Of a stretch of DNA of 64,000 nucleotides, positions 32,365-63,876 are shown one piece after another. The notes beneath the pieces were generated by a model. The model was not told the origin of the DNA and made no database searches. It saw only the letters and a program-made list of their open reading frames with translations. The stretch is taken from positions 81,053-145,052 of the forward strand of contig DAINCX010000001.1 in NCBI GenBank assembly GCA_036732165.1, in the 5' to 3' direction. How positions within the stretch are numbered: the stretch's first letter is position 1; the number at the start of each line of letters is the position of its first letter. Origin of the DNA: Candidatus Dormiibacterota bacterium. GTDB lineage: Bacteria; Chloroflexota; Dormibacteria; CF-121. The position numbers and the translations under genes were made by a program.

Positions 32365-32847
32365 TCAAGTTCGTTGCGCAACAATCTGCTCCACGGCGAT
32401 CGGGAGTCGCGTCTCGAAGTCGAGGAGTTTCGCCCAATCGGGCGTGATCGTGATGCGCGCCATCTGCTTGTACAGGTCGCGCACTTGAACTTCGAACGCC
32501 TGCCATTGCTCCACCGGAATGTATTTCTTAGATGCCTCGAAATACTCAGCTGGTATTCCGTCGACTATTTCGACGGAGGCTGTGCCTCGCACCAACAACA
32601 CATGGGGTGGCTGCGTGTCGGTATCCACGGTCAGCGCGACCTTCGGGTTGGTCTGCAGCGCTCGCACTTTGGGTGCATTCGAGGCGGTGCAAACAATGAA
32701 CTGACCGCCCCTCCACTGGTACCCGATGGGGATTACTCGTGGGTATCCATCCCTTCCGTTGTATGCGAGATGGGCGAGAAGGGGCGAATGGAGCAGTTCT
32801 TGTGCGAGCGGGTCGTCCAGGATATCGACGATGTCTTCTCGTCTCAC
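32365..32847 (-). CDS. Pyridoxamine 5'-phosphate oxidase-family, PPOX class F420-dependent enzyme-like
   Basis: 160 aa with a split-barrel FMN/F420-binding fold pattern. GC is about 58%, versus about 70% in the flanks, and the gene uses AGA, ATA and AAA codons that are rare elsewhere in the window. Confidence 0.72.
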   Translation of the reverse strand: MRREDIVDILDDPLAQELLHSPLLAHLAYNGRDGYPRVIPIGYQWRGGQFIVCTASNAPKVRALQTNPKVALTVDTDTQPPHVLLVRGTASVEIVDGIPAEYFEASKKYIPVEQWQAFEVQVRDLYKQMARITITPDWAKLLDFETRLPIAVEQIVAQRT

Positions 32848-33113: not shown

Positions 33114-33467
33114 ATGTCGCAATTGCCGTCTACCGCTCCCCTGATCGTAGCCACGACCGAGCGCCCGGCCGGCTATGAGGTCAAGCAGACTCTGGGCCAA
33201 GTGTTCGGCGTCGTGGTGCGCAGCCGCGGCCTGGGTGGCAACATCATGGCGGGTCTTCGTTCACTCGGCGGTGGCGAGATCGTGGAGTACACGCGCCTTG
33301 TCGAGGACACCCGGCGCCACGCGATCGACCGCATGGTCGAGAACGCTCGGGCTATGGGCGCCAACGCGGTCGTGATGATGCGGTTCGATTCATCAGAGAT
33401 GGGCAAGACAATGACGGAGGTGGTCGCCTACGGCACCGCTGCCATCATCGACAAGAGTGCCACGTGA
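33114..33467 (+). CDS. YbjQ/UPF0145-family protein (putative heavy-metal-binding)
   Basis: 117 aa, and YbjQ-like along the full length. Confidence 0.8.
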   Translation: MSQLPSTAPLIVATTERPAGYEVKQTLGQVFGVVVRSRGLGGNIMAGLRSLGGGEIVEYTRLVEDTRRHAIDRMVENARAMGANAVVMMRFDSSEMGKTMTEVVAYGTAAIIDKSAT

Positions 33468-33765: not shown

Positions 33766-34251
33766 CTAGCTTGCCGCTGGTCGGACGACCAGGGCCATCT
33801 GGGCGTCCAGCCGCTCCGCGATCCGGTCGACGAAATCCTTGATGGTCGCCTCCGCTACCCGCGACAGGAGGGCCCGGTCCACCATTCGGCCGATCAGGCC
33901 GAGCGGCGGACGGTACCGGGCGCTGAAGGCGAGTTGGGTGCGCTCGGCACCTAAGGTGGCGAGCTCGAGGTCACCATCGAGTACGGGGAAGAGCCCGCTG
34001 GGACCGGTCGCCTGCCACGAAATCGGAATCCAGGTCCGCGCGGACGACCGAACCGGGTCTCCCAGCCCGATCGAGATCCTTTTGACGATCCGGTGGCCAT
34101 CCATCGGAAATCCCACCTCGGTCAGCAGCCACTGGCCGCGCACGTCGGCGTTCTCAGCGAGATTCGGTAACCACGATGACGGTGCCTGGAGCAATGAGCG
34201 CTCCAGGTTCGGCATCGGGTGCGCCAGCTCGACGTAGTATCGGATGAACAC
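33766..34251 (-). CDS. SRPBCC-superfamily protein (polyketide cyclase/dehydrase-like)
   Basis: 161 aa with a START/Bet v1-like pattern. Confidence 0.55.
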   Translation of the reverse strand: MFIRYYVELAHPMPNLERSLLQAPSSWLPNLAENADVRGQWLLTEVGFPMDGHRIVKRISIGLGDPVRSSARTWIPISWQATGPSGLFPVLDGDLELATLGAERTQLAFSARYRPPLGLIGRMVDRALLSRVAEATIKDFVDRIAERLDAQMALVVRPAAS

Positions 34252-34255
34252 GGTA

Positions 34256-35206
34256 TCACCGCCCTCCCTCTTCCCGGTAGTACCGGCGCCACACGAGCCG
34301 GTAGATCGGGACCAGCCGCGGGATGTCGCGCAGCCCGGGAATGAACGGCACCACCAGCAGACCGAGCGTCAGCACGCCCATCAGGATCACCACCAGCAAG
34401 TCGCCGTTGGGCGCCGTGTTGAATGGTGGGATCTGGTACCAAACCGTGTACAGCCACAACCAGGACTGCCCCGGGTACTGACCCGTCTCATTCATCATGC
34501 CCCACTGGCTGCCGCTCAGGTGTTGTTGGTCGGCCAGGCCGGCCAGGTACGAACCGTCGGCCATGAAGAGGAGCGGCTTGGTGAAATCGGTCTGATAGAA
34601 ATGTCCACTGCTGAGCAAGAGACCATCGAGGCCACCCGAGCGCGCAACGGCCAGGAGTCGGTCCATCAACACGGGGACTGCGCCGTAGTCGCCACTCGCG
34701 ACCACGACCTTTCCGTCTTGGACTTTCGCGTCGCCGAGCGCCGTCGTGTAGGCAGTCAGCCAGGTGGTCTTCTGGGCGTCGGAGGCCGCCTGGAAATCAC
34801 CCAGTGCGGTGGTCAACTGCGAATCCCCGACACTGGCGTGCTTCAGCGGGCTGATCACGAAATCGTTCGCGCTGTCGACCGGTTGCCGGACGCCCGCCCA
34901 CTTCGATGGCGCGATCGGGCCCAGCGTCTGTCCCGCATCGGTGGCGTTGTACGGCGCGCCATAGCCGGCACTTGTCGTCGAGCCGGCCAACTCGCCGGCC
35001 GCCGTGGTGGTGAAGTCAACCGGGTCAGCCTGTGCCCAGCTCTGGATGGTGACCGACGGCACGTCCGGCGATGACAGGACCGCCGCCAGCACGATTACCA
35101 GCACGAGGCAGGCCGCCATGGCAATCGCGACTTCCTTGAGCAGGTCATAGGGCACCGTCCGGATGCTCGACGCGGAGCCCTCTGACGTCGCGCCCTTCTT
35201 GAACAT
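34256..35206 (-). CDS. Cytochrome bc subunit-IV-like membrane protein with a roughly 220-aa extracytoplasmic insertion
   Basis: It has an N-terminal TM helix, a large Ser/Thr/Gly-rich domain, and a C-terminal WYQIPPF...LLVVILMGVLTLGLLVVPFIPG. The C-terminus parallels PWYFLGLQELLSRFPP...FPTFVIVLMILVPFLD of the canonical subunit IV at 58236-58826. It lies immediately downstream of the cytochrome b gene. Confidence 0.5.
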   Translation of the reverse strand: MFKKGATSEGSASSIRTVPYDLLKEVAIAMAACLVLVIVLAAVLSSPDVPSVTIQSWAQADPVDFTTTAAGELAGSTTSAGYGAPYNATDAGQTLGPIAPSKWAGVRQPVDSANDFVISPLKHASVGDSQLTTALGDFQAASDAQKTTWLTAYTTALGDAKVQDGKVVVASGDYGAVPVLMDRLLAVARSGGLDGLLLSSGHFYQTDFTKPLLFMADGSYLAGLADQQHLSGSQWGMMNETGQYPGQSWLWLYTVWYQIPPFNTAPNGDLLVVILMGVLTLGLLVVPFIPGLRDIPRLVPIYRLVWRRYYREEGGR

Positions 35207-35209
35207 TTG

Positions 35210-35872
35210 TCACACCTCCGAAGTCGAGTGCGTCGCTGGCTGGGAAGACTCGATCGGCCGGACGACGCCCTTCATGCGAACCCAGACGATGTGCAGGGCA
35301 ACCAGCACGATGATGGCGGCGGGCAGGAGCAACACGTGGATGCCGTACATTTGGCCGAAGTTGAGGACGTTGAAGAAGGCGCCCAAACCGGCAGCATTGA
35401 GCGCGTCCTTGGCGCTAACCGCGATCCATTGCGAGGCGAAGTTCTGTTGCGAGAGGTAGCCGGTGAAGGCCGCCCCGATTGAAATCGCAAAGATGATCAC
35501 CCCGATCATCCAGGTCGCTGCCCGACCGCCTCGCCAGCTGGCCATGAAGTACTGACCCCAGAGGTGCAGCACCATGAAGACGAAGAAGAGCTGGACACTC
35601 CAGAAGTGCAGGCTGTTGAAGAATCGGCCGGCCGCCGAGATGTGCCACCAATCGGGCCCGGCGATCGCCAGGATGACGCCGCTCAATACCGTCAGCACCA
35701 ACGCGGCGATGGTCACGACGCCGAAGACGTAGACCCACGAGCCCACGTAGTACGGCTGGCGGTCAGGCAGAAGGTTTTCCATCGGCAGCCTTTCTGCGAT
35801 TTCCTCGCGGGCGCGGGCCGTCCAGCTGCTGGAGCGTTCGCCCATCGGTCCGGAGGCGTTGGTTGGTCTCAT
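35210..35872 (-). CDS. Cytochrome b (b6-type N-terminal two-haem domain), orphan paralogue
   Basis: Helix-B His pair: LHFWSVQLFFVFMVLHLW. Helix-D His pair: GIHVLLLPAAIIVLVALHIVW. Four TM helices, and no PEWY C-terminal domain. Confidence 0.8.
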   Translation of the reverse strand: MRPTNASGPMGERSSSWTARAREEIAERLPMENLLPDRQPYYVGSWVYVFGVVTIAALVLTVLSGVILAIAGPDWWHISAAGRFFNSLHFWSVQLFFVFMVLHLWGQYFMASWRGGRAATWMIGVIIFAISIGAAFTGYLSQQNFASQWIAVSAKDALNAAGLGAFFNVLNFGQMYGIHVLLLPAAIIVLVALHIVWVRMKGVVRPIESSQPATHSTSEV

Positions 35873-36006
35873 GACTTCTCCTTCTCACCCGGGAGGGGGA
35901 CGAACAGGGCGATCACGAACAGCACGATCATCAGGCCGATCAGCAGTAGGTTCGGGATCGAGATGAGGATGAAGCCCCAGTGCAGGTAGCCGGCAGGTGT
36001 ATCCAT
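35869..36006 (-). CDS. Small single-TM protein (about 45 aa)
   Basis: MDTPAGYLHWGFILISIPNLLLIGLMIVLFVIALFVPLPGEKEKS, coupled to the cytochrome b start. The track extends it to 36126. Confidence 0.35.
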   Translation of the reverse strand: MDTPAGYLHWGFILISIPNLLLIGLMIVLFVIALFVPLPGEKEKS

Positions 36007-36104
36007 AGTGGTTTCTACGGTACGCACCGCTGCCGGAGGAGGACACCGACCAAGGTCCCTCCTTCGGGGGGACCTTTCAGCCGCACCTCCGAATTTGCGA
36101 CGAT

Positions 36105-36770
36105 ATGTCGGTGAGCGAGACACCACTACGGGTTGTGCTGGTTGACGACCACGAAGTTGTCCGGGATGGGATCAAGTCGTTGCTCGAACCCGAAGCCGAC
36201 ATCACGGTCGTTGGCGAAGCCGGGACCGTCAAGGAAGGAATCGCCCGGGTGGAGTGGGCTCGTCCGGACGTGGTCATCATGGACATCCGGCTCCCGGATG
36301 GGAGCGGTATCGAGGCGACCCGTGAGATTCGCGCTCGTCTGCCGAAGACGCAGGTCCTGATGCTGACGACGTTCGCCGACGACGATGCGCTATTCGCCTC
36401 AATCATGGCGGGCGCCGCCGGTTACGTCCTCAAGCAGATCAAGGGCGCAGACCTCGTGCGGGCAGTAAGGACTGTCGGATCCGGACAGAGTCTCCTCGAC
36501 CCTGCGGTCACCAAGGGCGTCCTGGACCGGCTTCGGAAGGGCAAGCACTTCCTCAAGGACGAGCGGCTCGCCCGGCTGTCGGCCCAGGAGGAGCGGATCC
36601 TGACCCTCATCTCCGAAGGCAAAACGAACGGAGAGATTGGACAGGAACTCCACCTGGCCGAAAAGACGGTCAAGAACTACGTGACGAGCATCCTCTCGAA
36701 GCTCGAGGTGGCCCGCCGGGCCGAGGCCGCCGCCTACTTCGCCCGCCGCACGACGACCCCCGGCTCGTGA
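36105..36770 (+). CDS. NarL/LuxR-family response regulator (DevR/DosR-like)
   Basis: A REC domain (VVLVDDHEVVRDG...DIRLPDGSG) is followed by a LuxR HTH (LSAQEERILTLISEGKTNGEIGQELHLAEKTVKNYVTSILSKL). Confidence 0.9.
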   Translation: MSVSETPLRVVLVDDHEVVRDGIKSLLEPEADITVVGEAGTVKEGIARVEWARPDVVIMDIRLPDGSGIEATREIRARLPKTQVLMLTTFADDDALFASIMAGAAGYVLKQIKGADLVRAVRTVGSGQSLLDPAVTKGVLDRLRKGKHFLKDERLARLSAQEERILTLISEGKTNGEIGQELHLAEKTVKNYVTSILSKLEVARRAEAAAYFARRTTTPGS

Positions 36771-36786
36771 CCCGCTTCGTTCAGGG

Positions 36787-37572
36787 TCAGGGAAGGACGA
36801 AGACGACGCCCTCCATGGCAGCGGGAAACTCCGAGCTCCCCGGTCTGGCCTGCACCCGCTTGACCTCGCTGTTCCAGGTCGCGTGCGCATCGCAGAAGTA
36901 GGGATAGATGCCGGGCTTGTCGAAGGTGTAGGACGCATTGCCGTTGGCCGGGACGACGAACTTGAACTGGACGCTAACGCCCGGATCCGTCAGGACCGTG
37001 TGGGCGTCGGCGTCAAGGTTGGTCCACGTGACCTGGGTGCCCTGCTTGACGGCGATGGCCAGCGGCTCGAACCGGTCGGCACTGGGCATCACGATCTTGG
37101 CTTTGCCGGCGGACAGGGGCCCGTTGTCTCCCGCGACCAGGATGATCCCGTACATCGATATGGGATAGGCGCTCGCCCCCCGCTTGGCCTTGATCAAACC
37201 GGTTGTCCGATCGTAATCGGAGTGCGCATCGCAGTAGTAGCCGTAGATCCCGGGCTGGCTGAACGTGTGGGTGACCGACTTGCCGGACCCCACAAGCAGC
37301 TTGAAGTCGACCTGGTCTGTCGGCATCGAAACGACCGTGTGGGCATCCGTATCATGGTTGGTGAACGTCACGGTCCCTCCTGCCGCGATCTCGACCAGGA
37401 ATGGCTCAAAGCGATCGGCCTGTGGGATCGTGACGGCGGCCGTGCTCGGCAGGCCCGCCGCGCTCCCGCTGGGATTTGACGCACCGGACCCCCCGCCGCA
37501 CGAGGCAAGGATGACGGTGGTGCCAAACATGGCCAGGGCCGCAAGGCGATGGGGTATCAACAGAATTTTCAT
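36787..37572 (-). CDS. Lipoprotein with two tandem cupredoxin-like domains (atypical Cu site)
   Basis: The lipobox is ILASCGGG. Two repeats each carry H...YYCDAHS / YFCDAHAT, but no Met lies at the usual C-x2-H-x4-M position. Confidence 0.65.
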   Translation of the reverse strand: MKILLIPHRLAALAMFGTTVILASCGGGSGASNPSGSAAGLPSTAAVTIPQADRFEPFLVEIAAGGTVTFTNHDTDAHTVVSMPTDQVDFKLLVGSGKSVTHTFSQPGIYGYYCDAHSDYDRTTGLIKAKRGASAYPISMYGIILVAGDNGPLSAGKAKIVMPSADRFEPLAIAVKQGTQVTWTNLDADAHTVLTDPGVSVQFKFVVPANGNASYTFDKPGIYPYFCDAHATWNSEVKRVQARPGSSEFPAAMEGVVFVLP

Positions 37573-37691
37573 GCGAGCGCTCCTCAGTCAGTATTGGGAG
37601 AAGTATCCGGTGATCGCTCCATTTCCCCAAGGGGCCATGGGTCCTGACCTGCGTAGGCCAAAGGTCCCGCCGCGCCCTACGCGGCCCGCCC

Positions 37692-39305
37692 CTACGGCCG
37701 CTCGGCGGTCTTGATCGGCAACACGGCGTCGTAGGAGGTTTTGGAGGTTTCCACGACTACCGTCACCATCCAGTTCCCTGCCAGCGACAGCCTTGTGCCC
37801 TCCGCGCTGTAGATCCCAGCCCCCAGGCCTCGCAGCTCGAGGACGGTTTCGCCGGTCTCCGGGCGGCTTTGGAGATCGAACAGCAGGAAGAGGCGGGCTC
37901 CGCTGAGCGGCCGGCCCGTTTTGTAGTCGCGGACCGTCACCGTGAACCGGTTCAGGCCGGCGTATCCCGGGGCGACGTCAAGGTTCACCCGGACGGCGGT
38001 GCCGTGATCGACGCCTGCCACGACGAGGTGCGGAAAATTCTGCGACGCTGCCGCTCGAACGAAGCTCGGTGGCGGCAGGGTGGTAAGAAACGCCGCGGCG
38101 ACCATGATCACCGCAGCCAGCACGAGCTCTCCTCGAGATACCCAGCGCAGCCGGGGAATGCCGGCAACAGCCATTCGCACGTAGCGCCAGCGGTTCGTCG
38201 CCGCCAGCGGCGCGATCGTGATGAACAGCGCCGTCTTGGCCAGTAGCAACCAGCCGAAGGTCGTCGTAAACAGGTTCGACCAGTTCCCGACCTCGTCGAT
38301 CCCGCGAACCAGTCCGGTCAGGATCATGGCGGCAAAGGCGAACCCGGCAACCACGGAGAAACGGCCCACGGCGCGCGCCTTGTCGATCGTCGGCAGACCG
38401 CGGATCCCGACGAGCACGGCCACCAGCCCGCCGATCCACACCGCGTAGCTCAACAGGTGCAACCAGTGGGTGGGGATCATGAGCCAGGCCAGAGGACTGG
38501 AGGCGGCGTGGCTCACGGTCGCATTGGCCAGCATGGCGATGGCGCTGAGGGCGGCACAAATTCCGAGCGCGACCCGCCGAGGGGTTCCCTGCAGTCTCCA
38601 GGCGGCGAGCACCGCCACGCCCGCCGCGACGAGAGGTACGACCACGAGTTCCATCCCATGCGCCAGCGACGTGCCAAGGAAAAAGGACCAGTCGACGCCG
38701 GCGTTCTCACGCGTCGACTCGACGACCATGAACGCCCCGATTAGGGCCAGCACGTCGCCAACACCGACCACGAGCAAGACCGCGAGAGAGAAATCCTGGA
38801 GGGCCAGCAGATCGACCCAGGCGCCGCCCAGGAGAAGCCCATAGCCGGCATCCAGACCCCATCGACCTGTGACCCCGAGCGGTGACGGCGGGGCGGCGGG
38901 TGGGGCGACGGCCAGGGGAATGGGTGGCACTGCCTGGGCGCCGACCGCGAAGGCGAACACGCCGGTGGCGACATGACCGTCAATCGCAGAGACGGTGCGC
39001 CAGCTGACCGTGTAGACCCCATCGCCAAGGGGAGGGAGCGTGATGGCGACGGTCGTCGAAGCGCCCGACACGGCTGACGCGGGCCCGCCGGCCACCTGGC
39101 GACCGGAGGTGTCGAGGATCTGGACCTGCGAGAGCTTCGGATCTGGCGCTTCGGTGAACGTGATGATGACCACGCTCGGCGCGTGCGCCAGCCTGGCTCC
39201 GTCGGGTGGGTCCGACAGGCGCACCAGGGAATGGGCCTCGGCAACGACGCTCAGCGCTAGCATGACGCCACCCGCCAGGAGTACCGCCGTTAGGAACCGC
39301 CGCAC
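37692..39305 (-). CDS. CopC/CopD-family copper resistance fusion protein (YcnJ-like) with C-terminal YtkA/FixH-like domain
   Basis: It has an N-terminal signal peptide and a CopC domain (HSLVRLSDPPDGARL...), then about 8 TM helices (CopD), then a C-terminal beta-rich domain. Confidence 0.8.
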   Translation of the reverse strand: MRRFLTAVLLAGGVMLALSVVAEAHSLVRLSDPPDGARLAHAPSVVIITFTEAPDPKLSQVQILDTSGRQVAGGPASAVSGASTTVAITLPPLGDGVYTVSWRTVSAIDGHVATGVFAFAVGAQAVPPIPLAVAPPAAPPSPLGVTGRWGLDAGYGLLLGGAWVDLLALQDFSLAVLLVVGVGDVLALIGAFMVVESTRENAGVDWSFFLGTSLAHGMELVVVPLVAAGVAVLAAWRLQGTPRRVALGICAALSAIAMLANATVSHAASSPLAWLMIPTHWLHLLSYAVWIGGLVAVLVGIRGLPTIDKARAVGRFSVVAGFAFAAMILTGLVRGIDEVGNWSNLFTTTFGWLLLAKTALFITIAPLAATNRWRYVRMAVAGIPRLRWVSRGELVLAAVIMVAAAFLTTLPPPSFVRAAASQNFPHLVVAGVDHGTAVRVNLDVAPGYAGLNRFTVTVRDYKTGRPLSGARLFLLFDLQSRPETGETVLELRGLGAGIYSAEGTRLSLAGNWMVTVVVETSKTSYDAVLPIKTAERP

Positions 39306-39582
39306 GCTGGCCGAAGCCTAGCAGGTGTAGAGACGACGCTCGTTCCCAGTTACGAGGACCTCCGCCGACGGACATCGCGCACTCAAGGACTTCATTCTCC
39401 GCCTGGGCGCAATGGTCGAAGCGGATCCCAAGATTGCCGAGCTCGACTGCAATCCGTGTTCGTGGTCAGAGAGCCGCGGCGGCCTTTGGGGGCCCGTACA
39501 TGAGGCGGACTGGAACGTTCGCCTCCTAAAATAGCCTCGGGGCCGCCCAAGAGCTAGTGACCACGGCCGGCGCCCGGAAGGG

Positions 39583-41229
39583 GTGAGTGTGATGGCCTCG
39601 ATGTCGACCTCGGGCAAGGACCGGCGTGATCAGCTCCTGGAGTCCGGGCTCGCTCTCGCCTCGGGTCTGTCGCTGCCCACCGTTCTCCAACGAATCATTG
39701 ATCTTGCTGTGGAGTTGAGTGGGGCCCGCTATGGCGCCCTTGGCGTGCTCGGTCCCGGCGGCCGGATCCGCCAGTTCATCACCGTCGGCATCAATGCCGA
39801 GGAGCGGCGCGCCATCGGTCCGCTGCCCTTGGGCCAGGGCATCCTGGGCGCGCTGATTCGTGACGCGAAGCCGCTGCGGCTGCGCCGTATCACTGACGAT
39901 CCGCGCTCGATCGGCTTCCCCGCGAATCATCCACCGATGTCGTCCTTCCTCGGCGCCCCCGTCGTGGCGCGAGGCAAGGTCTTCGGCAACATCTACCTGA
40001 CCGAGAAGCAGGGTGCGGCCGAGTTCGACGCCGAGGACGAGGCCGCCCTGGTGGTCCTCGCGACCCAGGCCGGCGTGGCCATCGAGAATATCGACCTCTA
40101 TGAGGAAGGGCGGCGGCGCGAGCGCTGGTTGGAAGCGGTCCGAGAGATTGGAACCGCCATCCTCGCTGGCCAGGAGCTCAAAGCCGTCCTCAAGGCCGTG
40201 GCCCACGACGCCCGCGAACTGGCGCGGGCAGCGACGGCGACTATCGTGGTGCCCAGCCTCGAGGAGGACAGTGAATCAGACTTGATGATTGCCATCGCCG
40301 ACGGCGCCTATGCCGATGAGTTGGACGGGCTACGGGTGCCGATGCAGGGGTCGGTGTCGGGCGACGTTATGCGCACCCGACAAACCGCTGTACTGGCCAA
40401 CGGGTCGACCGACCCCCGGACATACCAACCGATGGTCAGCCTCGGCCGCATGGGCCCGATGGTGCTGGTGCCCCTCCTCGTGCAGGGGCGCTCAATCGGC
40501 ACCCTGGCTGTCGCGAACCCAGTCGGTGGCGCAGCGTTCGAGGAGCAGGAGGTTCGACTCGTCGAGACGTTCGCGAACCAGGCCTCCGTGGCGCTCGAGT
40601 ATGCCCGAGCCCAGCGGGATCGGCAGCGCGTGGCAGTGATGGACGACCGCGAACGGATCGCGCGCGAGTTGCACGACGGCGTCATTCAATCGCTCTTCGC
40701 CGTCGGGATGGGGCTGCAGGCGGCGGCCCAACGCAGCGGCGACCGCGAGATCGAGAGCCGGATCGATTTGGCCGTCAGCGAGATCGACCGCGCCATCCGG
40801 GACCTGCGCAACTACATCTTTGGATTGCGACCCGGTCTCCTGGCGGATCGCCAGCTACGCCAAGCCCTCGATGACCTCATTGCGGACTTCGCGGAGAAGA
40901 GCGGGGTCACGATCGTCGCGGACGTCGACGAGGGACTTGCTGCCGAACTGGCGCCCCGCTCAGCAGACCTGGTGCAGCTAACCCGCGAGGCGCTCTCGAA
41001 CGTGGGCCGGCATGCCCAGGCCGCAACCTGCCGGGTCAGTCTCTTTCGCGAGGATGGCCAGGGCGTGCTGCAGATCGAGGACGACGGCCACGGCTTCGAT
41101 ACCGCAGCGCCGCACACCGGTCAGGGGACGCGCAACCTTCGAGAGCGCGTCAGCGCGATGGGGGGTCAGGTGGCGATCGAGAGCGTGATCGGTGAGGGGA
41201 CCACCATCAAAATCGCGATGCCCCTCTAA
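39583..41229 (+). CDS. Sensor histidine kinase with tandem GAF domains, HisKA_3 + HATPase_c (DevS/DosS-like)
   Basis: Two GAF domains are present (ARYGALGVL...GNIYLTEK...AIENIDLYEE, and a second copy), then the HisKA_3 H-box RERIARELHDGVIQSLFAV and the ATPase G-boxes. It is the likely partner of the RR at 36105. Confidence 0.85.
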   Translation: MSVMASMSTSGKDRRDQLLESGLALASGLSLPTVLQRIIDLAVELSGARYGALGVLGPGGRIRQFITVGINAEERRAIGPLPLGQGILGALIRDAKPLRLRRITDDPRSIGFPANHPPMSSFLGAPVVARGKVFGNIYLTEKQGAAEFDAEDEAALVVLATQAGVAIENIDLYEEGRRRERWLEAVREIGTAILAGQELKAVLKAVAHDARELARAATATIVVPSLEEDSESDLMIAIADGAYADELDGLRVPMQGSVSGDVMRTRQTAVLANGSTDPRTYQPMVSLGRMGPMVLVPLLVQGRSIGTLAVANPVGGAAFEEQEVRLVETFANQASVALEYARAQRDRQRVAVMDDRERIARELHDGVIQSLFAVGMGLQAAAQRSGDREIESRIDLAVSEIDRAIRDLRNYIFGLRPGLLADRQLRQALDDLIADFAEKSGVTIVADVDEGLAAELAPRSADLVQLTREALSNVGRHAQAATCRVSLFREDGQGVLQIEDDGHGFDTAAPHTGQGTRNLRERVSAMGGQVAIESVIGEGTTIKIAMPL

Positions 41230-55538: not shown

Positions 55539-56507
55539 TCATGGGGTGACGGTGATGGTGCCCTGCATGTTGAAGGCCGTGTGGAAGGTGCAGACGTAAT
55601 GGTAGGTGCCCGGTTTGCCGAACTTGAGCTCGTACTTGTCGCCGCCATTCATCGTGTCCGAGGTCGGGACCTGCGAATTGTCGAAGGTGACGTTGTGCGC
55701 GGATGAGCCCTGGTTCACCCACTGGACGACATCCCCGACCTTGACCGTGGCACTGGTCGGGACGAACTTGAACTCGTCGGTTTCGCCAACCGTCTTCGCC
55801 GCGGCAACCCCGGTGACCTTGCTCGCCGTCGCGGGGCCGCCGCCGGGAGGCGGCGTTCCCTGGCCACTGGCCTGTTTTTGACGTTGCGCGTACCACGCCT
55901 GGTAGGCGCTCGGCGTCATCGCCTGGACCTTGACCTGCATCAGGTAGTGCCCGACGCCGCACAGCTCATTGCATTCGCCGTAATAGAAGCCGGGGTGATC
56001 GGCCTGGAGCCAGCCGTGATTCATCTGGCCGGGGATGGCGTAGATCTGTCCGCCCAGTCGGGGGGCCCAGAACGAATGCAGCACGTCGCGGCTGGTGACC
56101 TGGAGCTGGATCGGTTCCCCGGTGGGAATCACCAACGTATCCGACCTGACCCGGCTGTCCGGATAGGTGTACAGCCAGGCGAACTGCACGCCGACGACCT
56201 TGACGGTCATCGCCGGTGGCGGGCCGTTGCGGACGTAGTCCATCCGCAGTGTGGTCCGGATGAAGAGGAAGGACAGGATCACGACCGGGATCAGCGTCCA
56301 GACGATCTCGAGCCGGGTATTGCCGTGAATCTGGGCGGGCTCCCGCTCGTCCCGGCGGCGGAAGCGCAACGCGGCGTAAATCAACAGCCCACCGACGATG
56401 ATGAGGACCGCCATGGCGATCCAGAAGATACCGGTATAGATGCTGAGGATCTCGCAGGCGTTGGGGCCTGCGCAGTCGAGCGGGCTGACATCGACGGCTG
56501 GTATCAC
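55539..56507 (-). CDS. ctaC: Cytochrome c oxidase subunit II with C-terminal fused plastocyanin-like blue-copper domain
   Basis: The CuA site is H...CNELCGVGHYLM. The C-terminal 100 aa carry the type-1 Cu pattern AHNVTF...YHYVCTFHTAFNM (C-x2-H-x4-M) in place of a cytochrome c domain. Confidence 0.88.
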   Translation of the reverse strand: MIPAVDVSPLDCAGPNACEILSIYTGIFWIAMAVLIIVGGLLIYAALRFRRRDEREPAQIHGNTRLEIVWTLIPVVILSFLFIRTTLRMDYVRNGPPPAMTVKVVGVQFAWLYTYPDSRVRSDTLVIPTGEPIQLQVTSRDVLHSFWAPRLGGQIYAIPGQMNHGWLQADHPGFYYGECNELCGVGHYLMQVKVQAMTPSAYQAWYAQRQKQASGQGTPPPGGGPATASKVTGVAAAKTVGETDEFKFVPTSATVKVGDVVQWVNQGSSAHNVTFDNSQVPTSDTMNGGDKYELKFGKPGTYHYVCTFHTAFNMQGTITVTP

Positions 56508-57006: not shown

Positions 57007-57235
57007 GGATGAGCAGGGTGCCCACCGCCCAGATCAGCACGAAGAAGAAGTCCCCGACTCCCGGGTCTCGGGTCAGATTGAGAAGGTAGATCAGGCCCAG
57101 CACTCAGCCGCCTGCCTTGTGCGCCTTGGTGATGTCGAGCAGATTCTCCGCGACGATCACCATGGCGGTAAAGCCGACCAGGATCGCGAAGGCGACCAGG
57201 GTTCCGATCAGATCCTTGAGCTGCTGGCGTCTCAT
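56972..57235 (-). CDS. Two tandem small single-TM ORFs (43 aa each) separated by an in-frame TGA at 57104-57106
   Basis: ORF 57104..57235 reads MRRQQLKDLIGTLVAFAILVGFTAMVIVAENLLDITKAHKAGG, and its ATG overlaps the cytochrome c stop as ATGA. The codon after the TGA is GTG in the same frame, opening VLGLIYLLNLTRDPGVGDFFFVLIWAVGTLLILAYYCYRMFQR (56972..57103). Neither ORF is in the track. Confidence 0.35.
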
Positions 57236-58260
57236 GGCAGCGTCGCGTACTGCTGCCACATCCGAATCCAGTGGACCAGCAAATCGATGTTCTGATTGAT
57301 CGGCTGCGGCAAGAGTTTTTGAAGACCCCAGGCCGGCATGATCGTCCCCTTGTGCTCCTCACCCTGATTGCCGAAGTAGATGCACCGGTGATAGTAATCG
57401 TCGTTGAAGAATCCGAGCCGGTCCTTGTCATTGAGGGGCGGCCCTTTCCCACCTTCTCCGGTCGCGCCGTGGCACTGGGCACAGCTGTTCTCGTACAACT
57501 GGGGCGCGGTGTCGTAGACGCCGAAGGGGTTCTTCACCAGGTTCGTGTGGGCACCGGCCTGGGTCGTGGCCTGGCGGTTGCCGTTGTGGCAGATGATGCA
57601 ACCCGTCTCGTCGATGCCGAGCCCCTTGTAGGCGCTGGGAATGAAGCCGGTGATCTGGGCCACGACCGGCTTATTGGTCTGGGGGTCGGTCACCACCTTG
57701 CCGTTGGTGTCGAGCACGTAGTACGGCTGGGCCTGGGGGTTCAAACAGGCCGACGCGGTCGTCGCCGCCGGCGTACCGGCAGGACCGCCCGCACTGGCGG
57801 GGCTGGCCGACGGCGAGGGTTTGGCGCTAGCCGCGACCGACGGTTTCGCGCCGGCCGACGCGGACGGCTTGGGCGAGGGACTGGCTACGGTGGTGCTCAC
57901 GACTGGGGCCGGTCGGCAGACCAGGGTGTCCTGCCCGTATTTGGCGAAGACCACGTCGTTGATGACCGAGGGGTGGTTGGGGCCAATCCGCTTGGCCGCC
58001 TCCACCGGGCCGATCTTGGCGATGTCGGGGACGTGGCAGGTGATGCACCGCTCCACGACGAACTGGCTGTTGACCTGCACCTTGGGAAAGAGCTGCTGCA
58101 CGCCGATCGGGAAATCGGCCCCGTACTGCTGCGCGTATTTCTGCTGGATCGGCAGCCACGGACGGTTGAAATCCTGATAGAAGGCGAAGGCCAGCAGGGC
58201 GAGGAACAGCGCGCTGACGACGAGAAAGGCCCGGCCTAGCACGAGGTCCCCGGGGCACAC
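57232..58260 (-). CDS. Membrane-anchored tri-haem c-type cytochrome of the bc complex
   Basis: Three CxxCH motifs are present (CITCH, CIICH, CAQCH), with a Pro/Ser/Ala-rich linker. Confidence 0.78.
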   Translation of the reverse strand: MCPGDLVLGRAFLVVSALFLALLAFAFYQDFNRPWLPIQQKYAQQYGADFPIGVQQLFPKVQVNSQFVVERCITCHVPDIAKIGPVEAAKRIGPNHPSVINDVVFAKYGQDTLVCRPAPVVSTTVASPSPKPSASAGAKPSVAASAKPSPSASPASAGGPAGTPAATTASACLNPQAQPYYVLDTNGKVVTDPQTNKPVVAQITGFIPSAYKGLGIDETGCIICHNGNRQATTQAGAHTNLVKNPFGVYDTAPQLYENSCAQCHGATGEGGKGPPLNDKDRLGFFNDDYYHRCIYFGNQGEEHKGTIMPAWGLQKLLPQPINQNIDLLVHWIRMWQQYATLP

Positions 58261-58673
58261 TGCGGATTACCGAGCACCCAGCCCCAGTCCCAGCTGAACT
58301 CGTGACCGCGGAAGAAGGTGCCGATGATCACCAGCGCGACCACGATGGTCATGTAGAGGGCAAACAGGATGATGGCCAGCTTCCGCTCGGCCGGACGCCG
58401 GCTCGGGTTCCGGTCGAGGAAGGGCACCAGGATCATCAGCACGATGACGAAGGTGGGGAACGCTACGCCGGCCATCAGCGGCGGGAACCGGGAGAGGAGT
58501 TCCTGGAGCCCGAGGAAGTACCAGGGCGCCTTCGACGGGTTGGGCGTCATGCCGGGGTTCGCCTTCCCGAGCAGCGGCGCCTGCAGGAAGATCGAGACCA
58601 GCAGGAGGAAGATCGTCATGGCCACGGCGGCGATGAATTCCTTGAAGACAAACTCGGGGAACGACACGATCAT
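58236..58673 (-). CDS. Cytochrome bc complex subunit IV (cytochrome b C-terminal domain, PetD/QcrC-N-like)
   Basis: The PWYFLGLQELL (PEWY-type) motif and three TM helices are present. The internal start MIVSFPEF was chosen. The track extension to 58826 overlaps the cytochrome b6 gene. Confidence 0.75.
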   Translation of the reverse strand: MIVSFPEFVFKEFIAAVAMTIFLLLVSIFLQAPLLGKANPGMTPNPSKAPWYFLGLQELLSRFPPLMAGVAFPTFVIVLMILVPFLDRNPSRRPAERKLAIILFALYMTIVVALVIIGTFFRGHEFSWDWGWVLGNPQCAPGTSC

Positions 58674-58786
58674 CTCGTCGTCGCTGTCGTCCCGGATCGC
58701 GACGGGGGTGTCGGCGGACCGCTGGCGACGCCGGGCCTCGGCTCGCTCCCGTGCCTCGATGCGTTCTCGCGCGTCGGTAGCCGTGG

Positions 58787-59518
58787 TCAGAGCCCTCCGC
58801 TGAACCCGTCTTTGCGGACGCGCCAAAAATGGATGACCATCAGGAGGAAGCCCGCAAGAGGCAAGCCGACCACATGCAGCACGTAAAAACGCAGCAGGGC
58901 CGCGTCACCAACGATCTTGCCACCCAGCAACAGGTAGCGCGTGTAGGGTCCGGCGATCGGCGCGTACTTGGCCATGTTGGTGCCGACCGTGACGGCCCAG
59001 ATCGAGAGCTGATCCCAGGGCAGCAGGTACCCGGTGAAGCTCAGCAGGAGGGTGATCAGCAATAAGAGGGTCCCAACGCCCCAGTTGAACTCGCGTGGCT
59101 TCTTGTAGGCGCCGGTCAGGAAGACCCGCGCCATGTGCAGCCAGACGGTGATCACCATGGCGTGCGCGGCCCACCGATGCATGTTCCGGATCAGGCCGCC
59201 AAAGGTGACCACGAACTGGAGGTCGCGCATGTCCTGGTAGGCGTGGTTGGTGCTCGGCACGTAATAGAACATCAGGTACAGCCCGGTGACCGTCAGCACA
59301 ATGAAGAGGAAGAAGGACAGGCCGCCAAGGCAGAGCGTGTACGACATCCGGATCCAGGATCGCCGCACCCTGACCGGGTGGATATGCAGGACGAAGTTGG
59401 TAAGCGCCGTCCGGGCCGCGATCTTGTCCGTCAGCGGCAACCCGTGGCGGAATACCGCGCCAACCATCTGCTCGATGACCGAATAGATCTCGTCAACGGC
59501 AGCGCGGATGACCCTCAT
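58787..59518 (-). CDS. qcrB: Cytochrome b6 (split cytochrome b, haem-binding N-terminal domain)
   Basis: His pairs lie in helices B and D ([37 protein letters not shown]). The protein is 243 aa. Confidence 0.9.
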
Positions 59519-59531
59519 GAACCCTCCCCGA

Positions 59532-60083
59532 TCAAACCTTCAGGCGGAAACTCCGAGCCACGACGATCGACCGGTCGATGAACAGCTTTCCGTCCCGGGC
59601 GACCTCCACGTGGACGCGGTCCATCGGACGCGGCGCTGGGCCGAAAAAGTTGACCGCGTCCCGATAATACCGGCTGCCGTGACAGGGACACTTGAAGCCC
59701 GGCAGCGCGTTCTGCTGCTGATTCGCCCGTAGCCCGTGGACCCCCTGCGCGATCAGATCGCTGGTGACATCGGGAAAGTACCGGGGCGTGCAGCCGAGAT
59801 GGGTGCAGATCAGGCTGATTGCGTAGAAGCCATCAGGGTCTCGGTTGATGACCACCCGCTTGTCGGTGAGCACGGTCGTGGACCCGACGGCATAGCTGCC
59901 CGGGGCGTCGGCTTTGAACGCGGCCGGATCCTCGTACAGGGCGTTCGGCTGCAGGAATCGGACACTCTGGAAGAGCGCCAGCGCCGAGGCGCCGGCGAAG
60001 GCCAGCCAGCCCGACATGGCGAAGAAGCTGCGCCGCGACATCTGGCGGCTGTCGGTCAGGAGGCGTCGGAGGCCAGCAGCCAT
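59532..60083 (-). CDS. qcrA: Rieske [2Fe-2S] iron-sulfur subunit with Tat signal
   Basis: A twin-arginine motif (RRSFFAM) and the cluster boxes CTHLGC and CPCHGS are present. Confidence 0.9.
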
Positions 60084-62892: not shown

Positions 62893-63876
62893 ATGCGCAC
62901 CAGCATTAAGTCGGTCGGGACCTATGTCCCCGCCGGGATCCTGACCAACGCCGATCTCGAGAAGATTGTCGAGACCTCGGATACGTGGATCCGTGAGCGG
63001 ACGGGTATTGTCGAGCGCCATATCGCCGCCGTCGATGAGACCTCGACCGACCTGGCGATCGGCGCCGCTCTCGATGCCCTGGCGACGGCCGGTCTGCGCG
63101 CGGAGGACACCGACCTGATCGTCTGCAGCACATCCACGCCCGACACCATCTTTCCATCGGTCGCCTCGCGCGTCCAGGAGCGCCTGGGCGGCCATGGCCC
63201 CGCCTTCGACGTCCAGGCGGCCTGCACCGGCTTTCTCTACGGCCTGAGCATCGCCGATCGGTTCGTCAGCGGGGGCGAGTCCCGGCAGGCGCTCGTGATC
63301 GGGACCGAAACGCTGACCAAGATCTTGAATTTCAAGGACCGCGGGACCTGCGTCGTGTTCGGCGACGGGGCTGGCGCGGTCGTGCTGGGCCCCGGGCGGA
63401 ACGGTGCCGGGATCAAGTCCTGCCTCCTGGGATCGGACGGTACCGGGGGCGACCTGATCTATGTGGCGCCCGGGCCGGACGGCCCCGAGGGACCCGGGCG
63501 GCCCGAGATCCGGATGGACGGTCGTAAGGTCTTCCGTTTTGCGACCGAGATCCTGGCCCAGGCCACGCTCGAGGCCCTGGCCCAGGCGGACGTCCCGCTC
63601 GAGGCGGTCAAGCTGATCGTGCCCCACCAGGCGAATGCCCGCATCATCGAGGCGGCCGGAAAGAAACTGGGTGTGCCGAGCCACGTGATGGCCAACAACA
63701 TCGCGCAGTACGGCAACACCTCCACCGCCTCGATCCCGCTGGCGTTGAAAGAGGCGGTCGCGGCCGGTCGGGTGTCGGAGGGCGACCACATCGTGCTGGT
63801 CGGCTTCGGCGCCGGCCTGACCTGGGGCGCGTGCGTCATCGAGTGGGAGGGGGCGGCCGCCGGGGTGGCGGCCTAG
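62893..63876 (+). CDS. fabH: 3-oxoacyl-[ACP] synthase III
   Basis: The active-site Cys AACTGF, the His/Asn motifs and an N-terminus MRTSIKSVGTYVP are present. The protein is 327 aa. Confidence 0.9.
   Translation: MRTSIKSVGTYVPAGILTNADLEKIVETSDTWIRERTGIVERHIAAVDETSTDLAIGAALDALATAGLRAEDTDLIVCSTSTPDTIFPSVASRVQERLGGHGPAFDVQAACTGFLYGLSIADRFVSGGESRQALVIGTETLTKILNFKDRGTCVVFGDGAGAVVLGPGRNGAGIKSCLLGSDGTGGDLIYVAPGPDGPEGPGRPEIRMDGRKVFRFATEILAQATLEALAQADVPLEAVKLIVPHQANARIIEAAGKKLGVPSHVMANNIAQYGNTSTASIPLALKEAVAAGRVSEGDHIVLVGFGAGLTWGACVIEWEGAAAGVAA

Follow-up and report, generated by a model that had tools for sequence, protein, structure and literature searches.

Cytochromes b of the bc/b6f type are almost always discussed within the Rieske-dependent Q cycle. 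Stand-alone dihaem conduits, such as the Escherichia coli superoxide:quinone oxidoreductase CybB, MsrQ, and NarI, link the quinone pool across the membrane through two stacked b haems with no Q cycle. Rieske-less relatives of cytochrome b of obscure function have also been described, namely the cyanobacterial subfamily K, subfamily H, and clade G′ (Dibrova et al., 2017; PMC5600118). Here we analyze a 64,000-nucleotide stretch (hereinafter the window; G+C about 65%) from the genome of a Candidatus Dormiibacterota bacterium (GenBank assembly GCA_036732165.1, contig DAINCX010000001.1, positions 81,053–145,052), in which an operon codes for a 45-residue subunit with a single transmembrane (TM) helix, a dihaem cytochrome b, and a 316-residue membrane partner (hereinafter the trio). 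We find the trio to be a conserved and autonomous module of three subunits, a dihaem cytochrome b unit with no Rieske protein and with a novel ectodomain. It lies beside a DevRS-like two-component system and two genes for copper proteins, and an earlier note on this DNA had joined all of these into one self-contained module; our comparisons bear out the cytochrome b unit and its regulatory setting and speak against its proposed link to the copper genes.

A conserved Rieske-less cytochrome b module

The trio genes head a run of four tightly coupled genes on the minus strand, in the order 45-residue open reading frame (ORF), cytochrome b, 316-residue protein, and 161-residue protein; a Pfam profile search of the window proteins confirmed the annotated ORFs and domains of the locus at their coordinates. 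The 220-residue cytochrome b (35210–35872) comprises the N-terminal four-helix domain only and scores above the cutoffs of both Cytochrom_B_N_2 (PF13631; 50.4 bits, cutoff 27) and Cytochrome_B (PF00033; 37.1 bits, cutoff 27.2), its 50 bits comparing with 126–144 for the genome's canonical b6. It shares 23% identity with the window's own b6 (e-value 3 × 10–7), and its best NCBIfam match, ExtP (NF040969; 59.1 bits), falls below the equivalog cutoff of 290. The haem ligands in helices B and D (H89-x13-H103 and H179-x14-H194) are invariant in 33 diverse family members, which upholds the earlier description of a second, Rieske-less cytochrome b with both bis-histidine pairs; many residues of the n-side segments (facing the negative, cytoplasmic side of the membrane) and of the cd loop on the opposite p-side are invariant in the same 33 proteins. 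Two canonical signatures differ. The CxGG motif of helix A, which defines the haem cn site of cytochrome b6 (PMC5600118), is absent, its position reading Y48-V-F50-G51 with no cysteine and a single glycine kept, and the protein should therefore lack haem cn. In the cd loop, SQQN stands where the window's b6 has PWDQ (canonically PWDQ/PWGQ), which lines the quinol-oxidizing Qo site. The protein is 100% identical to one from metagenome-assembled genomes (MAGs) of Candidatus Dormibacteraeota.

The first gene of the operon (35869–36006, minus strand), recognized by reading the sequence, tblastn, and alignment, codes for the 45-residue single-helix subunit, with its N-terminus outside and its C-terminus inside. 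Its stop codon overlaps the cytochrome b start as ATGA, and the upstream coupling pointed out in the earlier note recurs widely: the small ORF is kept in at least 67 loci and is detectable by tblastn in about 68 of the 84 loci introduced below. An alignment of 67 distinct homologues yields the consensus pa.Y.HWgfi.iS.pNl..I..M...F..Al..PFP., and in P0121 and L028 the subunit is fused to the cytochrome b. We considered its conserved histidine as a cofactor ligand and rejected it, as several members have another residue there.

A pattern scan of one genome per species, with the loci confirmed, recovered the trio from at least 592 species genomes, and an exhaustive search returned 977 clusters at 50% identity. 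Carriers belong to Dormibacterota, Chloroflexota, Actinomycetota (Solirubrobacterales, Acidimicrobiales, Frankiales, Actinocrinis puniceicyclus DSM 45618, Kitasatospora cystarginea JCM 7356, and Amycolatopsis alkalitolerans), and, more distantly, Bacteroidota. We sampled the neighborhoods of 84 other trio loci, with 8 kb on either side. The cytochrome b gene lies directly 5′ of the partner gene in 82 of them, and the remaining two are cut by contig ends; the pair is thus a real unit, as had been proposed, and not a chance juxtaposition. None of the 84 neighborhoods contains a gene for a Rieske protein, a cytochrome c, or a canonical subunit IV (Rieske genes were sought by BLASTP with the window's Rieske protein and by scanning ORFs for the conserved CxH...CxxH pattern), and in Bacteroidota and aquatic Actinomycetes the trio stands alone amid housekeeping genes. 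Conservation in the absence of these canonical components, together with this solitary occurrence, marks the trio as an autonomous unit. Three Dormibacterota-like trio loci (L017, L019, and L021; 59–64% identity) carry the titles of a Micrarchaeaceae archaeon, an Acidiferrales, and an Actinomycetes MAG; these contigs are probably mis-binned or mislabelled.

The 316-residue partner and its likeness to subunit IV

The partner gene (34256–35206, minus strand) starts one codon past the cytochrome b TGA in the same frame. Neither Pfam nor NCBIfam has a family that matches its product, every source calls it ‘hypothetical’, and its closest relatives too are from Dormibacterota. From the N-terminus, it consists of a cytoplasmic P-Y-D-L-L-K-E motif, a first TM helix (about residues 22–44), an ectodomain (about 47–235), a second TM helix containing VPFIPG (about 268–290), and a basic/amphipathic cytoplasmic tail; the loop before the second helix is conserved as QWGMMNETGxYPGQxWLWLYTxWYQIPP. 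The extracytoplasmic ectodomain of about 210 residues has a confidently predicted all-α fold that matched no known fold in fold searches. It lacks any conserved cysteine, histidine, or methionine; its many invariant polar residues are, in the numbering of the whole protein, T68, E72, Y82, Y86, Q93, Y153, D194, and E240.

The earlier note had called this protein subunit-IV-like. A co-operonic membrane partner with a large extracytoplasmic domain is indeed what we find, and the likeness itself turned out weaker, in that profile methods fail to detect it. A phmmer search of the PDB with the protein returned, as its sole matches, five subunit IV chains of b6f complexes, aligned at the PEWY/helix F region (e-value 0.12). 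In a test based on composition-preserving shuffles of the compared segments, the C-terminal region matched the loop between helices E and F (ef loop) and helix F of PetD: the window protein reached z=7.6, and 30 family members averaged z=3.2, 70% of them at p≤0.05, with swapped-segment controls near zero; the match of the N-terminal helix to helix E of the canonical subunit IV in this genome averaged z=1.95. By eye, P19-Y-D-L-L-K-E resembles the PNDLL of PetD and the PEFVFKE of the canonical subunit IV, and W256-Y257...V-P287-F resembles PEWY...VPF at nearly equal spacing. The position of the Qo motif reads T254-V-W256-Y257, with Y257 invariant, the tryptophan mostly kept, and the proline and glutamate absent, and there are two TM helices (22–44 and 268–284/290) and not the three (E, F, and G) of subunit IV. 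Judged from these comparisons, from a gene order equal to that of petB-petD, and from the rare fusions described below, the protein is likely, at clearly better than an even chance, to derive from subunit IV, that is, from the C-terminal domain of cytochrome b. If so, its N-terminal anchor would correspond to helix E and its ectodomain to an insertion in the ef loop, with helix G lost.

In-frame fusions of cytochrome b and partner occur in P0123 and P0121, and in three of 82 loci (L033, L075, and L079). Long ORFs had made such fusions seem common in Actinomycetota, an impression rejected by a frame check that found just these three in frame. In the window, the cytochrome b TGA, a CAA, and the ATG of the partner gene follow one another in a single frame (35204–35212), and read-through of this stop would yield a fusion resembling the natural ones.

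Predicted DevR control of the trio

Divergent from the operon, across a 98-nucleotide spacer, lies a gene for a NarL-family response regulator (36105–36770, plus strand; Pfam Response_reg and GerE) whose best PDB match is full-length Mycobacterium tuberculosis DevR (3c3w; e-value 7.8 × 10–58). The kinase gene beyond the copper genes (39583–41229, plus strand) codes for a DevS/DosT-like protein with GAF-A, GAF-B, HisKA_3, and HATPase_c domains, whose GAF-A domain matches those of DosT (2vzw; e-value 1.9 × 10–40) and DevS (e-value 2.5 × 10–34) and which retains the histidine of an HPPM motif. Both proteins, and the control by a DevRS-type system that had been read from them, thus find support, to which the enriched boxes described next add.

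The DosR consensus is TTSGGGACTWWAGTCCCSAA (PMC2275270). We scanned the 250 nucleotides 5′ of the small ORF in 67 loci for the core GGGAC-N4-GTCCC, taking the expectation from the rest of the same loci. With at most one mismatch, there were 15 boxes in 14 loci against 1.04 expected (p=5 × 10–13), and with at most two, 71 boxes in 45 loci against 13.5 expected. These boxes mostly lie 75–130 nucleotides upstream and are present also where no regulator gene is nearby, as in Actinocrinis. In the window, a candidate DevR operator (36046–36082) occupies the spacer between devR and the operon: a DosR-like box (GGGACCTTGGTCGG on the minus strand, 36046–36059) overlaps an inverted repeat, GGTCCC-N9-GGGACC (36054–36074). 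The stem of this repeat recurs around another spacer in L005, a locus from an 86%-identical relative. Of 85 loci, about 30 have a NarL-type regulator gene, and about 16 a DevS-like kinase gene, no more than 8 kb from the trio. The recurrent neighbors of the trio are cytochrome bd, the Usp stress protein, hemerythrin, acetate kinase, phosphoketolase, PNPOx-like, and WS/DGAT genes, a set typical of hypoxia regulons. We accordingly predict DevR control of the trio in soil lineages. The window's only perfect GGGAC-N4-GTCCC palindrome (GGGACCTATGTCCC, 62917–62930) falls at the 5′ end of a FabH-like ORF (62893–63876); the match may be fortuitous, or it may point to a wrongly placed start codon.

A copper cassette inserted between devR and devS

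Beyond the operon, the genes follow in the order regulator (plus strand), cupredoxin (minus), CopC-CopD-YtkA fusion (minus), and kinase (plus). The fusion gene (37692–39305), directly 5′ of the cupredoxin gene, codes for a YcnJ-like copper-handling membrane protein, and all three domains of the fusion claimed in the earlier note were matched by Pfam (CopC 66.7, CopD 55.8, and YtkA 26.2 bits); its NCBIfam scores stay below the equivalog cutoffs (76 versus 195; 53 versus 95). The cupredoxin (36787–37572; Pfam Copper-bind and Cupredoxin_1) is a lipoprotein with the lipobox LASC and two tandem cupredoxin domains, each bearing His...Cys-x2-His; it matches plastocyanin, pseudoazurin, and amicyanin in the PDB. 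The lipoprotein and its two domains had been recognized correctly; the axial methionine, said to be lacking, may be displaced and not absent. The PDB alignments stop at the histidine, and by eye the only candidate in both domains is a methionine 26–27 residues past the cysteine, about 22 past Cys-x2-His, in the context M-x-G-[IV]-[IV]-x-V. The two domains stem from a recent internal tandem duplication, since the DNA contains repeats (in 36883–37371) spaced 339 nucleotides apart at 79–80% identity.

In a blastn comparison with L005, homology stops at 36770 and restarts at 39591, with two nucleotides between these points in the relative. The 2,820 bp with the copper genes, from the devR stop to the devS start (36771–39590), are therefore an insertion; devR and devS are adjacent in L005 and in other Dormibacterota, same-species MAGs carry the insertion too, and its ends bear no terminal repeats. 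In the 84 other trio loci, neither tblastn nor profile hidden Markov models found a cupredoxin or CopCD in the 8 kb to either side. About 27 of 31 related metagenome loci preserve the copCD-then-cupredoxin order, which marks a conserved two-gene cassette of a narrow clade. The cassette lies beside DevRS-like paralogues in 14 of the 31, oftener than beside the trio; it comes within about 6 kb of the trio in only three (L101, L113, and L116). A larger operon joining the two in L101 was considered and rejected, as a malic enzyme gene and genes of unknown type lie between. Right after the cupredoxin gene, L109 contains a 22-residue C-terminal remnant of the 316-residue protein (positions 1619–1684; 90% identical), the footprint of a past rearrangement between trio and copper loci.

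The cassette has candidate operators of its own. Two DosR-like boxes 23 bp apart (37632–37668) lie 60–96 nucleotides 5′ of the cupredoxin start, and each of the 19 distinct regions upstream of cupredoxin homologues contains the pair (31 boxes against 2.07 expected; p=10–25, a value that overstates independence as the loci are interrelated), including a perfect GGGACCTTAGTCCC in L123. Given this conserved pair, we predict that DevR targets the cupredoxin gene, at a promoter of its own in the copCD–cupredoxin spacer, and trio and cassette are likely co-regulated in this clade. The cassette is thus best described as a local insertion with putative DevR boxes of its own, and the cluster as a predicted regulon island and not one machine. 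The self-contained module donating to the adjacent copper proteins is hence not upheld, given the insertion, its absence from all 84 other loci, and its own DosR-type boxes.

Proposed function and alternative explanations

We propose, at about even confidence, that the trio forms a Rieske-independent, quinone-linked transmembrane cytochrome b complex with a subunit IV-derived partner, and that it belongs to a DevR-type hypoxia regulon; of these points, the origin of the partner from subunit IV, the tie to quinone, the direction in which electrons move, and the induction of the operon are inferred. The 45-residue subunit, the b6-like cytochrome b, and the two-helix partner would assemble into one complex, in which the partner would keep helix E, with the n-side P-x-D-L-L-K-E, and the WY...VPF ef/helix F region, helix G having been lost. 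The cofactor-less α-helical insertion of about 210 residues in the ef loop would form a cap over the former Qo site. With the Qo signatures replaced and no gene for a Rieske protein, a cytochrome c, or another redox partner alongside the trio, a bifurcating Q cycle is not expected. The n-side quinone site would be retained, with P-x-D-L-L-K-E, H-x4-R-x2-G, and N-terminal and B–C loop residues conserved. The complex would join the menaquinone pool, through this site and haems bH and bL, to a remodelled p-side site, and so carry electrons across the membrane either toward an extracytoplasmic substrate or partner or back from it. Where the operon would be part of a DevR/DosR-type regulon, in soil Dormibacterota and Actinomycetota, its product would probably be made under hypoxia, nitric oxide, carbon monoxide, or reductive stress. 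A stronger claim, which we regard as doubtful, is that the trio, as a descendant of cytochrome b6 and subunit IV, represents a new widespread class of respiratory complex, in which a cofactor-less helical ectodomain replaces the Rieske/cytochrome c head and supports a new quinone-linked reaction at the outer face, and that it acts as a core effector of DosR-type dormancy regulons in soil Dormibacterota and Actinomycetota; were it true, the complex might vent or harvest electrons during hypoxic persistence.

Several results weigh against the proposed complex. No p-side cofactor, substrate, or partner was identified, so the reaction and its direction are guesses. As to subunit IV ancestry, Cytochrom_B_C (PF00032), which scores the window's real subunit IV at 44.6 bits, matches neither the whole 316-residue protein nor any of 62 C-terminal fragments of the family (e-values up to 10), and PDB searches with whole, C-terminal, and N-terminal family profiles gave nothing specific. 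Alignment to a subunit IV profile with hhalign gave e-values of 0.008–0.02 at probabilities of 2–5%, no better than for 27 unrelated TM proteins used as a control; the collinear matches (helix E to E and helix F to F) were accordingly dropped as evidence of homology, the control scoring equally well. A predicted model of cytochrome b fused to the partner has a pLDDT (predicted local distance difference test) of 70 overall and 35–50 in the cytochrome b part, with TM-scores of 0.24–0.29, and fold searches based on it are no more than suggestive. On the regulatory side, the window's own trio box has two mismatches, and no DosR-like boxes lie 5′ of the trio in Bacteroidota and aquatic Actinomycetes loci, which makes its regulon membership lineage-specific.

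The failure of the profile methods leads to the most plausible of the alternatives, which we nonetheless hold to be rather unlikely: the 316-residue protein could be unrelated to subunit IV, a new bitopic enzyme or binding protein for which the cytochrome b serves as an electron wire, as MsrQ does for MsrP. The confidently predicted novel fold of the ectodomain, with its many invariant polar residues, would suit such a role, but the ectodomain has no conserved cysteine, histidine, or methionine for a redox cofactor, and the composition-controlled similarity to the PetD ef/helix F region, together with a topology and a gene order like those of b6 and subunit IV, argues for a common ancestry. 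Conversely, the trio might have kept Qo-type quinol oxidation, as a hypoxia-specific cytochrome b core borrowing the Rieske protein encoded at 59532–60083 and a cytochrome c. The intact dihaem core, the WY kept from PEWY, and the presence of a Rieske gene in the genome fit this idea, and Rieske genes are not always found beside their cytochrome b (PMC5600118). However, PWDQ has become SQQN, PEWY has become TVWY with only the tyrosine invariant, helix G is missing, a 210-residue domain fills the ef loop where the Rieske head docks, and no Rieske gene is linked to the trio in 84 loci; we think borrowing has only a slim chance of being right.

Scarcely better is the prospect that the trio oxidizes quinol and passes electrons to the neighboring two-domain cupredoxin, loaded by CopCD, the whole forming an alternative respiratory branch that depends on copper. 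In this species the genes are neighbors, in L101, L113, and L116 the two units lie close together, and the remnant in L109 again brings them together; DosR-type boxes on both make co-expression likely, the organism uses copper carriers elsewhere (a COX2-cupredoxin fusion), and the ectodomain could be a docking surface. Yet the cassette is missing from the neighborhoods of the 84 other loci and, as a 2.8-kb insertion, from the 86%-identical relative; it is separated from the trio by an opposite-strand gene here and by the malic enzyme gene in L101; and it accompanies DevRS paralogues more often than the trio. With co-regulation likely, copper donation is possible in this clade, but it cannot be the general function of the trio. 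Most improbable of all is a non-catalytic complex acting as a membrane redox sensor or accessory that reports the state of the quinone pool to DevS/DevR: in its favor are the divergent arrangement with devR here and the DevRS-type genes close to the operon in roughly one locus in three, whereas most Actinomycetota, Bacteroidota, and aquatic loci have no two-component genes nearby, and DevS of mycobacteria, a soluble haem sensor, is not known to depend on a partner of this kind.

The wider interest of the quinone-linked complex lies in how widely its dihaem core occurs: at least four phyla and about a thousand sequence clusters conserve it without a Rieske protein, unannotated and together with a new partner domain. 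Long persistence on trace resources is a known trait of Dormibacterota and soil Actinomycetota, and a quinone-linked complex under DevR/DosR control would, if real, be a component of redox balance or of the upkeep of membrane potential without oxygen. The cultured carriers A. puniceicyclus DSM 45618, K. cystarginea JCM 7356, and A. alkalitolerans make the module accessible, and the boxes extend DosR-type operator logic to a candidate phylum, with the cupredoxin as a predicted target.

Other features of the operon and the window

The lineage-specific fourth gene of the operon (33766–34251, minus strand) starts four nucleotides past the partner gene and is called as a gene in same-species contigs as well. 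Its 161-residue product has no Pfam or PDB relative. In only six other loci (L005, L039, L043, L057, L071, and L116), a homologue (41–86% identity) lies about 4 kb or less from the trio, and distant paralogues (29–35%) stand beside DevRS-like paralogues in L100, L103, L108, L110, and L111; this distribution suggests another regulon member. Just 3′ of the operon are a PNPOx-like gene (32365–32847, minus strand) and a YbjQ-family gene (33114–33467, plus strand); seven other loci also have a PNPOx-like gene close to the trio.

The complete Rieske/b6/subunit IV/cytochrome c complex noticed earlier at 57–60 kb is present (57232–60083, minus strand, with the Rieske gene at 59532–60083). Its subunit IV (58236–58826, minus strand) has an APWY Qo motif and a cysteine-containing C-terminal tail kept in homologues; the motif is that of the APWY clade (Kao and Hunte, 2014; PMC4122944). 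Adjoining this set is a gene for cytochrome oxidase subunit II (55539–56507, minus strand) with a C-terminal plastocyanin-like domain, the COX2-cupredoxin fusion mentioned above.

Comparison with known systems

Among the accessory genes, the copper proteins resemble YcnJ-type CopC-CopD fusions and type-1 cupredoxins in their CopC, CopD, and YtkA domains, their His/Cys/His ligands, and their plastocyanin-like fold. They differ in that both are below NCBIfam equivalog cutoffs, in the tandem two-domain lipoprotein, and in the ligand loop, which in type-1 cupredoxins is a short Cys-x(2-4)-His-x(2-5)-Met and here would span about 22 residues from the histidine to the candidate methionine. With mycobacterial DevS/DosT-DevR, the locus shares the kinase architecture, the haem-type GAF-A, the DevR-like regulator, and GGGAC-N4-GTCCC boxes 45–160 nucleotides before start codons; unlike there, the phylum is another one and devR and devS are split by the inserted cassette. 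To our knowledge, neither the cytochrome b trio nor the cupredoxin is a member of the M. tuberculosis DosR regulon.

For the trio itself, CybB, MsrQ, and NarI offer an analogy only, being of unrelated folds and families. Like the proteins of subfamilies K, H, and G′ and like ExtP, its cytochrome b is a b6-like protein outside Rieske/cytochrome b operons; all four haem-ligating histidines are invariant, unlike in subfamily K, where a haem ligand is lost, and none of these groups has been described with a partner of the 316-residue type or with a small subunit. The earlier judgment that the combination is not a described complex agrees with our searches of databases and full-text literature, which returned no annotation of or paper on the module. 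Its nearest known counterparts, apart from these subfamilies, are the split b6 and subunit IV of b6f and of Bacillus-type menaquinol:cytochrome c reductases, among them the window's own APWY-type complex at 57–60 kb. The trio shares with them the four-helix dihaem b with H-x13-H and H-x14-H and the H-x4-R-x2-G end of helix D; a membrane partner encoded immediately 3′, with an N-in TM helix, a p-side loop, and a TM helix with WY...VPF; and, with the genome's own subunit IV, the n-side P-x4-K-E motif. It departs from them in having no Rieske protein, cytochrome c or f, or CxGG/haem cn; in the replacement of PWDQ by SQQN and the loss of the proline and glutamate of PEWY; and in its two-helix (not three-helix) partner, ectodomain of about 210 residues, additional conserved 45-residue subunit, and identity of 23% to the canonical b6.

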